64,000 nt of DNA from an uncultured delta proteobacterium. Its GTDB lineage: Bacteria; Desulfobacterota; Syntrophia; Syntrophales; Smithellaceae. The stretch is taken from positions 288,001-352,000 of the forward strand of contig CAVWEH010000001.1 in NCBI GenBank assembly GCA_963753975.1, given 5' to 3'. Positions 9,485-59,568 of this stretch are shown piece by piece. A program made the translations under genes and the position numbers. The notes under the pieces are model-generated. The model was given only the letters and a program-made list of their open reading frames with translations. It had not been told where the DNA came from and ran no database searches. Each line of letters starts with the position of its first letter. The first letter of the stretch is position 1.

Positions 9485-10078
9485 TTAGCCCAAGTTTCCG
9501 TTAACAAAATCCCAATTAATCAAATTTTGAATGACAGCAGAAAGATAATCCGGTCTTCTGTTTTGATAATCGAGGTAATAGGCATGTTCCCATACATCGA
9601 TAGTCAGGAGCGGTTTCTGGCCATGGGCAATGGGAGTATCAGCATTAGCTGTTTTTGTTATTTTTAATTGCTTTCCCTCCAAGACCAGCCAGGCCCAGCC
9701 ACTGCCAAATTGAGTGATTCCGGCGTTTTTCAGTTCTTCGGCAAATTTATCATAGGTTCCCCAAGTAGCGTTTATCTTGCCGCCAATTGTTCCGGTAGGT
9801 GTGCCCCCGCCTGATTTCTTCAGGCATTGCCAGTAGAAAGAATGATTCCAAACTTGAGCCGCATTGTTGAAGATGCCGGCCTTGGCCGGATCTTTGGCTG
9901 CGATCTTAATAATTTCTTCCAGTGGCTTTTCTTGAAGGTCGGTTCCGGCAATCAGCTTCACTAAGTTATCCACATAAGCTTTGTGATGCTTACCATAGTG
10001 GAAATCCAAAGTATTGGAGCTGATATAGGGCGCTAGCGCGTCTTTCCCGTAAGGCAGGTTTGGTAAATTTATAGCCAT
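9485..10078 (-). CDS. sodB: Fe superoxide dismutase
   Basis: HYGKHH, FNNAAQVWNH (Fe-type), FGSGWAWL, DVWEHAYY; start placed at the ATG after AGGAG. Confidence 0.95.
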   Translation of the reverse strand: MAINLPNLPYGKDALAPYISSNTLDFHYGKHHKAYVDNLVKLIAGTDLQEKPLEEIIKIAAKDPAKAGIFNNAAQVWNHSFYWQCLKKSGGGTPTGTIGGKINATWGTYDKFAEELKNAGITQFGSGWAWLVLEGKQLKITKTANADTPIAHGQKPLLTIDVWEHAYYLDYQNRRPDYLSAVIQNLINWDFVNGNLG

Positions 10079-10146
10079 CTTTTGTTCTCCTTTCTTCATT
10101 GTTTCTTTAATGTCTAAAATATAAGGCGCAATTCCGGAATGTCAAT

Positions 10147-10662
10147 CAATGAGACCCAAATTTCCAAAACGTAGTGAGTCCCAGATTTTAGAAGCGAAGC
10201 GCATAACCTAAAGGTCATCTACGACTGAAATCTGTTAGACGAACTATCCCGCAAAGCGGTGGAAGTGCATAACCTGAAGGCCACTGCCGCTGAAGTTTAC
10301 TGGACGTAATGAGACTCAAACTTTAAAAGCGAAGCGTATTAAAGTTTGTTAGTCGAATTATCCAATAGCTAAAGGCTATTGGAAATTATCCCCGAAGCGA
10401 AGCGTAGCGGGATGAGGAGACCAGTAAGCGCAGCTTATTGGGATCAGTACCTTGGTGTAGGTCGAATTAATGAAACTCAGGTATTGCAAGCGAAGTGCAG
10501 CAATATCTGCTAGCTGTAATGAGACTAAAACTTCAAAAGCAAATAACCTAAAGGTCACTATAGGCGCATTGAAGTTTTTTAGCCGAATTATCCAATAGCC
10601 AAAGGCTATTGGAAATTATCCCGCGCCAGTCGGGGTTGATCCTACCAGAGGTGGAATTGATC
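10147..10662 (+). repeat. Cluster of nested GA-mismatch hairpin units (starts 10147, 10172, 10307, 10468, 10517) with three micro-insertions
   Basis: Repeated TARTGA-NNC...AAGCGAAGYGCA...GAAYTATCC units with self-complementary 10 bp arms. Confidence 0.92.
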
Positions 10663-10723
10663 ACGATTTTGAGGTATTAAGTTTTGGGTTCAGGGCTTGC
10701 ACAAACGGTTAATGCCCCTTACT

Positions 10724-11641
10724 TTAATCGGCAGTGTTATGCCCCATTCTATATTGGAGCCAATTTATATAAAAGAAAGTGACAATAGCGAATATTAATG
10801 AAGGAAGAGCGGCTTCCTTGCTAAAGATAATAAGTGCTATACCGCCGGAAAGCTCGTAATTTTTCATAGTTCCCAGAAGAAGAGAAGAAGTAATCTTTTT
10901 TTCAGCGATCTGAAAAAGCTTTCCAGTTTTTTCAATAGTCAGAGCTAACAAAAAAATGCCAATAACAGCAATGAAAACAATGGAAGAAAGGTCGTCCGGC
11001 CAATTCAAGAGTATATCCCTTCCGTTTGCCGTCAGGGAATAAAATACAATAAATAGACAACAATCGGTTATTATGTTTTCATATGGTTCAATGATTTTAT
11101 CCCATTCTTTTTCCACAATGAGTCGCGAAAGCGCCAGCGGCAGTATAATTAATTCGACTATCAGCAAAATAATACCCCAAAAATTAAAGGGAATATTTTT
11201 AAGAAAACCCAAGCCTATCAATGGTATAATTAAAATAGCGCCCAAATAAGCTCCCGCAAATCCGGCGTATGTCGAAGTAGCGTCGGCCCGGAATGATTTA
11301 CTCAAGGGCAATATGGCCACTGCGGGCGGTATAGCGGCAATCAGCACCATGCCTATCCAGAGGGCTTCGTCGAAAATAAAAAACATGCCGGTCAATATTA
11401 TCAAATTTCCCCAGAGAAGATAATTCATAACATTGCCGCGGATAGCCGAACTGATAAGTTTTTTGGGGCGGCGGAAAAAACCGCGCGGTATTTTCAAAGG
11501 TGTAATTGTCAGAATGACCGTGAGCGCGGGCAAGGTCAGCGCGGCGGCGACTACATTTGCCTGAGGTAAAAGAAAACCGCAAAGCACGGACGCGAGAAAA
11601 ACTATGTTGGAGCGGGAAACAAGATATTTGAAACGGGCCAT
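10724..11641 (-). CDS. Bile acid:sodium symporter-family membrane transporter
   Basis: About 9-10 hydrophobic segments; GMVLIAAIPPA and GTMKNY.L..GIAL motifs; start chosen at MARFKY. Confidence 0.7.
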   Translation of the reverse strand: MARFKYLVSRSNIVFLASVLCGFLLPQANVVAAALTLPALTVILTITPLKIPRGFFRRPKKLISSAIRGNVMNYLLWGNLIILTGMFFIFDEALWIGMVLIAAIPPAVAILPLSKSFRADATSTYAGFAGAYLGAILIIPLIGLGFLKNIPFNFWGIILLIVELIILPLALSRLIVEKEWDKIIEPYENIITDCCLFIVFYSLTANGRDILLNWPDDLSSIVFIAVIGIFLLALTIEKTGKLFQIAEKKITSSLLLGTMKNYELSGGIALIIFSKEAALPSLIFAIVTFFYINWLQYRMGHNTAD

Positions 11642-40111: not shown

Positions 40112-40332
40112 AAATCCAATTCTAATGAAACTCAGATATTATCCCGTTCCGGGATGTCGCGTCTTGGAAAATAGCCTTCGGCTCCTTCCGGAGGTGCTCC
40201 ACAAGCGCAGTGCAGTAATATCTGCAAGTTGTAATGAGACCCAAGTTTCAGCGCATCACATTTCTGAAACTTGTTGGTCGAATTATACCGCATAACTGCG
40301 GCAAATTATCCCACGTGCGAAGCTAAGTGGGG
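40106..40332 (+). repeat. Nested GA-mismatch hairpin cluster (outer 40123, inner 40232-40303, 60 bp insert 40141-40200)
   Basis: CAGATATT[60 bp]AC pairs with GTAATATCTG; inner unit splits GTTG/AATTA. Confidence 0.88.
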
Positions 40333-41086: not shown

Positions 41087-41259
41087 TCACTACCCCGCTA
41101 CGCTTCGGGGATAGTTTCCAATAGCCTTTAGTTGTTGGATAATTCGACTAACAAAAGAGTTTCTGTCCCACATGGCTTCGCATGCGGGATAGTTCCACTA
41201 ACGCTTCGAGCTGCACTTCGCTTGCTCTTAGCGGGTGTCACTAAATTTGGGACTCATTA
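41087..41259 (-). repeat. Nested GA-mismatch hairpin cluster
   Basis: Reverse complement TAATGAGTCC..., inner TAGT-GA-CAC...GTG-GA-ACTA, then AGTCGAATTATCCAACAACTAAAGGCTATTGGA. Confidence 0.87.
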
Positions 41260-59364: not shown

Positions 59365-59390
59365 AAAAAAATGTCGCTCCGAAACTTTAT

Positions 59391-59568
59391 TTGTGAAACT
59401 CCAATTCCGAAAGCGAAGCGTATAACCTGAAGGTCACACGTCGGAATTGGCAAGTTGTAATGAGACCCAAGCTTCAGAAACAGAGTGCGCTGAAGCTTGC
59501 AGGTCGAATTATCCCGCGAAACGGAGGGCATGAACCATAAAGCGTGCTTCGGGGTTCATGCCCGTGGG
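59391..59568 (+). repeat. Nested GA-mismatch hairpin cluster between acn and icd (outer 59391, micro-insert 59422-59440, second unit 59458)
   Basis: CCAATTCCGA/TCGGAATTGG and CAAGCTTCAG/CTGAAGCTTG perfect arms. Confidence 0.88.

Follow-up and report, generated by a model that had tools for sequence, protein, structure and literature searches.

The 64,000-nucleotide (nt) stretch of DNA analyzed here, the window (G000:C1:288001-352000), belongs to a genome of 2.43 Mb (G000) that is assembled in 6 contigs and is 95% complete. Positions below are those of the window unless a contig of the same genome (C1, C2, C5) or the label of another genome (G002 and so on) precedes them. The window carries small gene-less repeats, here called units, each made of a head and a tail, and at three places one complete unit stands within another. 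In the first nest a 77-nt unit (10307-10383), running from TAATGAGAC to CTATTGGA, lies between CTGGACG and AATTATCCCC. A 97-nt unit with the same ends (10517-10613) forms the second nest, between CTAGCTG and AATTATCCCG, and a 72-nt unit (40232-40303), running from TAATGAGAC to CTGCGGCA, forms the third, between GCAAGTTG and AATTATCCCA. The coordinates and junctions are exactly those listed in the initial annotation of this DNA, which described each insert as sitting between the G and the A of another unit's right arm. The two secondary junctions that it listed are also present: the left junction, AAGTTG followed by TAATGAGAC, recurs at 59457/59458, and the right junction, ..CTATTGGA followed by AACTATCCCC, recurs at 41117/41116 on the minus strand. 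The settings of these two are less regular, with two heads and one tail at 59458 and a tail-only insert beside a damaged head at 41115. Removing an insert restores the outer arm, as had been claimed; the rejoined flanks read ..GGACGAATTATCC and ..AGYTGAATTATCC, words that occur uninterrupted 5 and 33 times, respectively, in the genome.

Each unit consists of two abutting hairpins, A and B. Hairpin A begins with TAATGAGAC, continues into an inner stem with a C-GNA-G apex, and ends with GTCGAATTA; hairpin B is variable. When the 77-nt unit was folded as single-stranded DNA, hairpin A occupied positions 1-54 and hairpin B positions 55-77, with no spacer and with every base used. The fold energy was -18.6 kcal/mol, whereas 200 shuffled sequences averaged -4.8 (z -7.6). 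Hairpin A has a basal stem of 4 base pairs (bp; TAAT/ATTA), which leads through a 2 x 2 internal loop, formed by G.A and A.G, to a second stem of 3 bp (GAC/GTC); beyond a small loop that is asymmetric follow a variable stem of 10 bp and the apex. The apex consensus from 127 distinct heads is C24 G25 N26 A27 G28, where N is A in 62, C in 33, G in 12 and T in 20; we take the C-GNA-G apex to be a GNA triloop, an unusually stable DNA mini-hairpin of the d(GCGAAGC) type. The unit ends coincide with the bases of the two hairpins, in agreement with the initial annotation, and the nest point G^A is the bond G49-A50, on the 3' arm and within the tandem G.A loop. As judged from 81 distinct simple units, the pairs flanking the tandem G.A/A.G loop covary, with A-T (50 units) or G-C (24) at 3/52, G-C (45), A-T (21) or C-G (6) at 7/48, and A-T (64) or T-A (7) at 2/53. 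None of 1000 shuffles matched the pairing observed.

Junctions across the genome and at orthologous loci

A head model of 49 nt built from 61 seeds gave 242 matches in the genome (nhmmer, E up to 10). The 175 matches that extend to the last three model positions are the set used for the junction counts, in which two rows of the table were refiled by eye. The terminal G of these heads is followed by a tail start in ~137 cases (AAYWATCC in 99, variants such as AATTGATCC in ~38), by another head at +0 (G^) in 20 and by another head at +3, after AAT or AAC (GAAT^), in 16. By chance, ~215 random head starts on 4.86 million strand positions would give 0.008 matches to 175 positions. The head-after-head pattern is thus far beyond chance. 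All 36 inserted heads are co-oriented with the host unit. The genome contains 136 clusters of units; 71 of these have at least two heads, in a single orientation in 70 and in mixed orientation in one.

The type of the inserted head predicts the site at which it is found. All 20 G^ inserts start T[AG][ATGC]TGAG..., and of the 16 GAAT^ inserts 14 start [TC]AATGA[AC]A and two start CAATGAGAC. Heads of the GAAT^ class, of the TAATGAAAC/TAATGACAC kind, enter three bases beyond G^A. In 10 of the 16 the outer tail resumes with TATCC, which restores the linker GAAT/TATCC and leaves a 2-nt TA ambiguity. The G^A junction has no ambiguity: the first base of the insert is T and that of the right flank is A, and the last base of the insert is A and that of the left flank is G. 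Because the terminal bases of insert and flank differ at both junctions, no target duplication is possible at G^A. The fixed G^A position and the lack of a duplication proposed at the outset are therefore borne out; insertion is in a single orientation and overwhelmingly into units of the same family. G^A is, however, not the sole site, since GAAT^TATCC, loop positions and unit 3' ends are also used. A module of 20-22 nt, (A)TAACCTRAAGGTCA.. plus 5-7 variable bases, occupies a fixed position just 3' of the apex in ~36 of 62 interrupted heads (for example at C2:355827-355847 and at three places in the window, given below). This mini-insert is sometimes doubled (TAACCTAATAACCTGAAGGTCAC..). Whole units are found at the loop site AAACG^ (AAACG^AAGTGC), GTGC^GCTGAA is a further loop site, and units also stand at the 3' ends of other units, after GGAGGG^ (the end of hairpin B) and after other tail ends. 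All insertion sites observed are unpaired or helix-end/junction positions of the predicted fold. Units occur in unique DNA as well, after terminators, after a tRNA-like 3' end and on phage-like contigs, with no linker homology there.

The second tail expected of a complete inner unit accompanies the second head. Two heads are followed by two tails at 12 of the 20 G^head junctions. Of 115 heads with a tail immediately after them, the 22 that stand after another head's ..WRGYYG had a further tail start 18-40 nt on in 14 cases, against 3 of the 93 others (Fisher 5e-10); two more positives have degenerate junctions. The strict pattern yielded 16 balanced nests in the genome, and nine loci in other genera comprised five balanced nests, two cases of one head with two tails and two truncated cases. 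Variants of the basal stem (TAAT/ATTA, TAGT/ACTA, TTGT/ACAA and TCGT/ACGA) indicated nested order in 6 cases and crossed order in none, with 10 uninformative, in a scripted assignment that misplaced some outer heads. The tail of family F1, to which the outer unit of the third nest belongs, has 11 close copies, 4 of them contiguous with an F1 head and 7 situated after the end of an inner unit. When checked by eye, an F1 head lay upstream of most, not all, of these 7, and the F1 linkers hold at least three kinds of inner unit. Inner copies with 96-99% likeness are found in outer units that have tails only 36-59% alike, and the units with tail a occupy outer units with at least six different head arms. 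Because the right arms of outer and inner units are only 53% alike at the median of the 16 nests, the nests are not local duplications. These observations speak for the insertion of whole units into pre-existing units and not for tandem duplication or the random stringing of modules.

The decisive evidence for real insertions is provided by orthologous empty sites, which the comparison with relatives proposed in the initial annotation revealed in three species (G011, G013 and G002). At C2:355866-355942 a 77-nt unit (TAGTGAGAC..GGCTATTGGA) stands exactly between TTAGTCG and AATTATCCCGC. At the same locus, C2:355.8k, the three relatives have a simple unit (TAATGAGACTCAAATTTC..TTTGTTAGTCGAATTATCCCGC..) with the linker ..TTAGTCGAATTATCCCG.. 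uninterrupted and with the same unique flanks on both sides. They also lack the 21-nt ATAACCTAAAGGTCATCTGCG that is present in the loop here. The orthologous linker carries a different unit at GAAT^TATCC in G010 and another G^A nest in G005. Since the genome studied here, G010 and G005 are the closest three by identity, the simple state at this locus would most simply be ancestral, the linker having been struck independently in three lineages.

Other loci provide further comparisons. Both loop sites that bear inserts in the head starting at 10147 are uninterrupted in its G002 orthologue. The composite cluster at C1:152.2k is wholly absent from G013, G011, G002 and G010, and that at C2:632k from G011. 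A nest at C5:10716 is common to this genome and G005 at the orthologous site. For the nest at 40232 no precise empty orthologue was found, G010 having unrelated sequence there and no repeat. We conclude with high confidence that the insertions are real, site-specific and orientation-specific and that they occur without duplication.

Composite clusters of the window and neighboring features

The features of the window's clusters are on the plus strand unless stated otherwise. The outermost unit of the first cluster, U1, begins with the left part of its head, CAATGAGAC..AAAACG (10147-10171), the counterpart of which in G002 is the uninterrupted head CAATGAGACCCAAATTTCAGAAACGAAGTGCGCTGAAATTTGATGGTCG. 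A whole unit, TAGTGAGTC..GCGGTGG (10172-10262), occupies the apical loop of U1 at AAACG^AAGTGC, a loop site that is empty in G002, and has a 22-nt mini-insert of its own (10203-10224). The right part of the U1 head (10263-10306), which ends ..CTGGACG, includes the mini-insert ATAACCTGAAGGCCAC.. at 10269-10290. It is followed by the inner unit of the first nest (10307-10383), with its GA/GA internal loop in the DNA fold, and the U1 tail, hairpin B, resumes with AATTATCC immediately 3' of the insert (10384-10413). The outer head of the second nest, TAATGAAAC..CTAGCTG (10468-10516), starts right after ..GGTCGAAT, a junction of the second kind. The inner unit (10517-10613; 77 nt plus a mini-insert at 10543-10564) is 96-99% identical to the inner units at C1:152427 and C2:466759, and the outer tail, AATTATCCCGCGCC.., extends from 10614 to 10635.

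The outer head of the third nest (TAATGAAAC..GCAAGTTG, 40123-40231) contains a 60-nt loop insert, the 72-nt inner unit follows at 40232-40303, and the F1 tail AATTATCCCACGTGCGAAGCTAAGTGGGG occupies 40304-40332. The loop insert (40142-40201; TCCCGTTCCGGGA..AATAGCCTTCGGCT..GGTGCTCCACAA), found in ~15 other F1 copies, itself contains two small hairpins. Some F-type heads lack it, for example that at 10468-10516.

The minus-strand cluster at 41093-41259 comprises a head start (41244-41259), an inserted unit (41166-41243), a head remnant (41145-41165), a 28-nt tail module, AATTATCC..CTATTGGA (41117-41144), and the outer tail (41093-41116). In its place the G010 orthologue has a single simple unit, which shares the outer tail and the right flank. 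The two heads and one tail at 59393-59528 are a head GTGAAACTCC..GCAAGTTG (59393-59457), a head TAATGAGAC..GCAGGTCG (59458-59506) and a tail (59507-59528).

Many clusters begin ..TTTATT followed by GTGAAACTCCAATTC, next to a ribosome-binding site and start codon in reverse complement (..CAT..CCTCC..), and therefore lie immediately upstream of the ribosome-binding site of a divergently read gene. Examples are C1:152290-152320, C2:358700-358760 and 59370-59400 in the window. At C5:209950-209985 a unit starts one base after ..GGGTTCGAGCCCCATCGCCCGCTCCA, which resembles the 3' end of a tRNA gene. A larger "frame" element is present at C2:631864-632129, from TTGTGAAACTCCAATT to ..GGTTCATACCCGTGAT. 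The corresponding locus of G011 (C4:79020) is an empty site, CATTTTAT^TTTTCA, and G010 (C116) has the frame at the same site as the genome studied here with a different interior, as if inner units had been exchanged. The G010 orthologue of C2:355.8k (G010:C153:32899-33060; L169) has a chimeric head, its left arm TCTAATTCCG and its right arm GCTGAAGCTTGTTGG, the latter of another subfamily, being joined at the mini-insert. This arrangement suggests recombination between units at the mini-insert module.

No public sequencing run contained more than 17% of the words from 9900-10900. Four runs compared with the window gave only short Logan contigs, with repeats of many contexts and none bridging the nests. 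A metagenome scan with the neighboring SodA yielded a best relative 87% identical in protein and no conspecific contig.

Possible mechanisms of insertion

On the reading that we prefer, the units are small gene-less mobile DNA modules that are transposed as folded single strands; taken as a whole, this statement is in our judgment evenly balanced between true and false. New copies have entered resident units whole, in the orientation of the host unit, at the G-A bond of the linker ..YYG^AAYWATCC, with no base duplicated. The moving form would be a single strand, folded so that its 5' end meets its 3' end at the base of the two hairpins. An activity supplied in trans would cut at the hairpin bases and join the unit to an unpaired position of another folded unit, whether the tandem G.A loop, the junction of hairpins A and B, an apical loop or the unit 3' end. 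To this folded moving form and its trans-acting cut-and-join step we assign an even chance at best, and perhaps slightly less. The logic would be that of HUH/IS200-type single-strand transposition, with no recognizable HUH enzyme in the genome. Insertion that is precise, free of duplication, in one orientation and confined to a few exact bonds is typical of single-strand cut-and-join elements (IS200/IS605, REPIN) and not of DDE transposons. The contrast that the initial annotation drew with DDE-type MITEs (miniature transposable elements bounded by inverted repeats) also stands, as there is no duplication at G^A and the unit ends, TAATGAGAC.. and ..CTATTGGA, are not inverted repeats.

Several observations weigh against this reading. 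Searches of the 95%-complete genome gave no match to Y1 (PF01797), IS110 (PF01548), TnpB (PF07282) or serine recombinases (PF00239). There was likewise no match to rve (PF00665) or DDE_Tnp_1 (PF01609), in a search that did not extend to DDE_3 (IS630) and other DDE families, and none to Y2 (PF04986), for which the control was silent. Y1 (PF01797) is present in 15 of 24 genomes of the family and absent from the repeat-rich genomes G002, G005, G010 and G011, and heads are found within 2 kb of 2 of the 12 Y1 loci of the relatives, about the chance rate. IS200/IS605 elements have an orientation bias relative to replication, reflecting the lagging-strand template; the strand of the clusters compared with local GC skew gave an odds ratio of 1.7 (p 0.16), not a significant link, in this six-contig assembly, in which origin and terminus are unmapped. 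IS200/IS605-derived elements also insert 3' of a single conserved tetra- or pentanucleotide, which doubles as their left cleavage site; here the left flank of the 16 strict nests varies among GTTG, GCTG, GACG and GTCG, and in unique DNA it is T-rich. G5.A50 and A6.G49 are found in all 81 simple units, an invariance that is partly forced by the way the units were selected. Lastly, structure-directed targeting and targeting directed by the word YG^AAYWATCC are indistinguishable from sequence alone. Structure-guided cutting at the G.A mismatch, as first proposed, is plausible, and the site is equally well described as that conserved word; no enzyme was found for it among the families searched.

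Other candidates were tried and set aside. A Y1 transposase was rejected as the mover in this genome for want of a PF01797 match and because the Y1 loci of relatives are not linked to repeats. Tyrosine recombinases gave five matches in the genome. The one inspected is xerC at C2:523.3k, tightly flanked by repeat clusters; it sits beside hslV, and its proximity to the repeats was taken as coincidence. The sole reverse transcriptase gene (C2:429302-430180; L187:1366-2244; 292 amino acids; PF00078, 68.8 bits) lies directly after a small XRE-type helix-turn-helix gene, probably encodes a retron or defense reverse transcriptase, and shows no link to the repeats. A hammerhead ribozyme or C/D-box reading of TGA..GAA was dismissed, since the usual head has TAATGA and not CUGAUGA, there is no 3-nt bulge, and Rfam 15 covariance models gave no match at E up to 1 to positions 10050-10750. 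The orientation of the clusters follows no clear rule relative to the direction of neighboring genes.

A stronger version of the folded-strand reading would place the units in a new, structure-targeted class of mobile DNA: sheared-G.A double hairpins, with a tandem G.A loop and GNA triloops, that are cut at the hairpin bases and joined, scarless and strand-specifically, into unpaired positions of their own folded copies by an activity outside the known transposase families or by a host replication or repair enzyme. We regard this version as doubtful.

The main rival explanation does without a dedicated enzyme: the units would spread when forks stalled by hairpins switch template (copy-choice), or through short-patch gene conversion among scattered copies. 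The conserved linker words, left ..WRGYYG and right AAYWATCC, would provide the microhomology, and a rare founding nest would be copied into other linkers. Such copying accounts for the single orientation, the lack of duplication, the restriction to the units' own kind and the near-identity of inner copies. It would also fit the absence of the common transposase and recombinase families tested, the tyrosine recombinases (one of them the xerC beside hslV) excepted, and recombination between units is indeed seen, in the chimeric head of G010 at C2:355.8k and in the interior swapped between G010 and the present genome at C2:632k. Nevertheless, the same inner family occurs in outer units that share only 6-8 nt per side, which is short for conversion, and the two head types use two different, precisely complementary junction pairs. 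Units in unique and phage-like DNA, where the linker homology is lacking, are a further difficulty. In addition, the insert at C2:355866 has no copy at least 85% alike among the 16 strict nests, the only set compared, solo copies elsewhere not having been searched for. We therefore consider enzyme-free copying unlikely.

Alternatively, a sequence-specific recombinase or transposase might read the word YG^AAYWATCC in double-stranded DNA, the hairpins serving transcript stability, termination or the binding of host proteins. No part of the family is more conserved than the linker word, the lower stem has only 4 bp, and orientation shows no significant link to GC skew; all three would speak for such an enzyme. 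It would not be expected to use sites of other sequence (AAACG^AAGTGC, GTGC^GCTGAA and GGAGGG^), the common feature of which is that they are unpaired or at a helix end, and the compensatory changes that preserve the stem around the site weigh against it too. An enzyme of this type is improbable in our estimation.

A third possibility is that each nest arose by separate single-hairpin events, namely the insertion of a 49-nt head alone and that of a 20-nt palindrome, AATAGCC-NNN-GGCTATT-GGA, which would duplicate the 8-nt AATTATCC in the manner of a DDE-type micro-MITE. The tail module does have AATTATCC on both sides, and a tail-only module is present at 41117-41144. The self-nesting grammar of complete units claimed initially holds at 12 of the 20 G^head junctions. 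The other 8 have one tail or none, including head-head-tail, which limits the strict unit-within-unit grammar to ~60%, and head-tail-tail is found in G021 and G142 (2 of the 9 loci in other genera). These unbalanced cases count against the entry of whole units; they may reflect decay by slippage between 8-9-nt direct repeats, or single hairpins may also be mobile. Both head-head-tail and head-tail-tail could be derived from nests by such slippage. The association of double tails with double heads (see above) would be unexplained by separate events, as would the finding that all but one of ~19 tail-a copies in the genome are in linkers, with none elsewhere beside a different flanking repeat. 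Moreover, the flanking repeat differs in length with the type of head, being 8 nt at G^A and 5 nt at GAAT^TATCC, which joint entry of head and tail would predict, and there is no rve or DDE_Tnp_1 match in the genome. We judge separate events to be very improbable.

Local tandem duplication or assembly error, named in the initial annotation as what might refute the insertions, can practically be dismissed: although repeats of this kind break and mis-join short-read assemblies and the Logan contigs on this stretch are short and fragmented, the dissimilarity of outer and inner arms, the same architecture in independent assemblies of at least six other genomes, including other species and genera, and the C5:10716 nest common to G005 all speak against it.

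Related systems, distribution and meaning

The nearest bacterial precedent is the small dispersed repeats (SDRs) of Nostocaceae, which are 21-27 nt long. SDR1-8 were reportedly described by Elhai et al. in 2008, in Genome Res 18:1484, and we know of no transposase for them. The 20-22-nt mini-insert (ATAACCTRAAGGTCA..), with its fixed loop position in over half of the interrupted heads, is SDR-sized. SDRs differ from the Smithella units both in lineage and in form, the main units here being double hairpins of 72-97 nt with a tandem G.A loop. SDR5 is placed between the third and fourth base of HIP1 (PMC4390886), and SDRs are reported only from Nostocaceae (PMC5861425). The SDRs resemble the present units in being very small gene-less repeats at a precise, fixed point of a repeated host word (PMC4390886).

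Like IS200/IS605 and REP elements, the units are hairpin-defined, lack terminal inverted repeats and target duplications, are inserted in one orientation next to a short word, and form mosaic clusters. The IS200/IS605 family (IS608, ISDra2) and the REP, BIME and REPIN sequences are the subject of PMC3116915, PMC3333891, PMC6006769 and PMC8266576. Non-autonomous elements derived from IS200/IS605 have a full-length partner that encodes TnpA (Y1), often together with TnpB. REP sequences are moved by a RAYT (TnpA-REP), a Y1 HUH enzyme (PF01797) encoded by a single-copy gene that the repeats typically flank. The units differ from IS200/IS605 elements in that their genome has no Y1 or TnpB match, the Y1 genes of relatives are unlinked to the repeats, and cluster orientation shows no significant link to GC skew. 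They differ from IS608 in that the hairpins reach the unit ends and leave no room for a guide between cut site and hairpin. A REP is a short, GC-rich palindrome with a 5' GTAG or CGTC tetranucleotide tag (the tag as defined in PMC3733652), and two inverted REPs make up a REPIN. In contrast to REPINs, the units start TAATGAGAC, have no GTAG/CGTC tag and comprise two different hairpins in direct order, with no inverted REP pair. DDE-type MITEs (Correia and IS630/Tc1-like elements) are distinguished by their terminal inverted repeats and fixed-length duplications, neither of which is found at G^A, and no rve or DDE_Tnp_1 match accompanies the units. The 2-nt TA ambiguity of the GAAT^TATCC class could nonetheless be taken for a duplicated TA.

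Double-hairpin elements of Allomyces mitochondrial DNA were reportedly described by Paquin, Laforest and Lang in 2000. A passage in PMC2800124 portrays them as mobile and free of flanking duplications and suggests an RNA intermediate, and one in PMC2670323 describes nested palindromes, inserted into one another, in Volvox organelle DNA. As far as these passages go, the units share with the organellar elements mobility, two hairpins and the lack of flanking duplications. They differ in that the latter belong to eukaryotic organelles, and the passages on them do not describe a fixed insertion point in a conserved internal loop. The RNA intermediate suggested in the Allomyces passage finds no support in the Smithella units from either the apex motif or the single, unlinked reverse transcriptase gene.

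Integron attC sites, which belong to cassette arrays beside an intI gene, are recombined as folded single strands by IntI. They resemble the units in that an unpaired internal spacer separates a basal from an upper stem, with exchange on the 3' arm beside the spacer/basal-stem junction and no duplication. The unit consensus, on the other hand, lacks RYYYAAC/GTTRRRY cores, there are no cassette open reading frames, and the units are dispersed in the 136 clusters, though no search aimed at IntI was made. Exchange of the integron type between two G^A sites was rejected, since it would leave heads and tails with crossed partners and nested order is observed. BOX elements of Streptococcus pneumoniae (boxA-boxB(n)-boxC) concatenate modules in a fixed order and are similar in being modular, hairpin-forming, gene-less intergenic mosaics with variable module numbers. 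To our knowledge, precise nesting of unit in unit at one phosphodiester bond has not been described for BOX. Membership of REPIN/RAYT, IS200-derived elements, DDE-type MITEs or attC sites fails in each case on at least one defining feature.

The canonical unit, as the word TAATGAGAC-N39-GAATTATCC, occurs in at least 130 stretches of public genomes, the titles of which are almost all those of Smithella, Smithellaceae, Syntrophaceae or "delta proteobacterium" metagenome-assembled genomes. Because the word is nearly confined to such titles, the host is, as judged by sequence, a Smithella-like syntroph. The right junction of the commonest nest-dwelling tail, GGCTATTGGAAAYTATCC, was found 11 times in the genome studied here, 16 times in G021, 7 times in G142, twice in G011 and once in G019, genomes that represent three genera of one family. 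It was found in none of 140 genomes from 23 other families of the order (reversed control, 0). Among the genomes searched, the repeat family is by this measure confined to Smithellaceae. Within that family, G000, G002, G005, G006, G010, G011, G013, G019, G020, G021, G024 and G142 are rich in the repeats, and G001, G003, G004, G007-G009, G012, G014-G016, G018, G022 and G023 are poor in them. A literature search for repeats of Smithella found no relevant paper. Seven IMG/VR contigs (L210-L217) carry true units, with head and tail, in intergenic spaces and encode a Mu-like major head protein gpT, a Mu-like protease I, a tape-measure-like protein and a virion morphogenesis protein; the units therefore invade phage or prophage DNA or travel with it.

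The kind of element is itself known but unexplained, and the Smithella units are a variant of it. The present analysis contributes the exact bonds that are targeted, the empty sites at orthologous loci, the covarying pairs next to the tandem G.A loop and an enzyme survey that proved negative. The Smithella-like lineage provides a second, independent bacterial case of scarless hairpin repeats without a known enzyme, and we know of no explained mechanism for the tiny scarless hairpin repeats of Nostoc-type cyanobacteria and of organelles. The case is testable: orthologous loci offer exact empty and filled states, the two types of head have two different exact target bonds, the genome is without the usual transposases, and what is targeted is one phosphodiester bond within a defined DNA fold. 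If the stronger, structure-targeted version is true, the same process would explain the cyanobacterial small dispersed repeats and the organellar double-hairpin elements. The genome has ~240 head copies in 2.4 Mb, and the units have probably been active recently, because copies are up to 99% alike. They swell and jumble intergenic regions, cause short-read assemblies to break and lie immediately upstream of ribosome-binding sites, and they therefore matter for annotation and for the prediction of promoters and 5' untranslated regions in these syntrophs.

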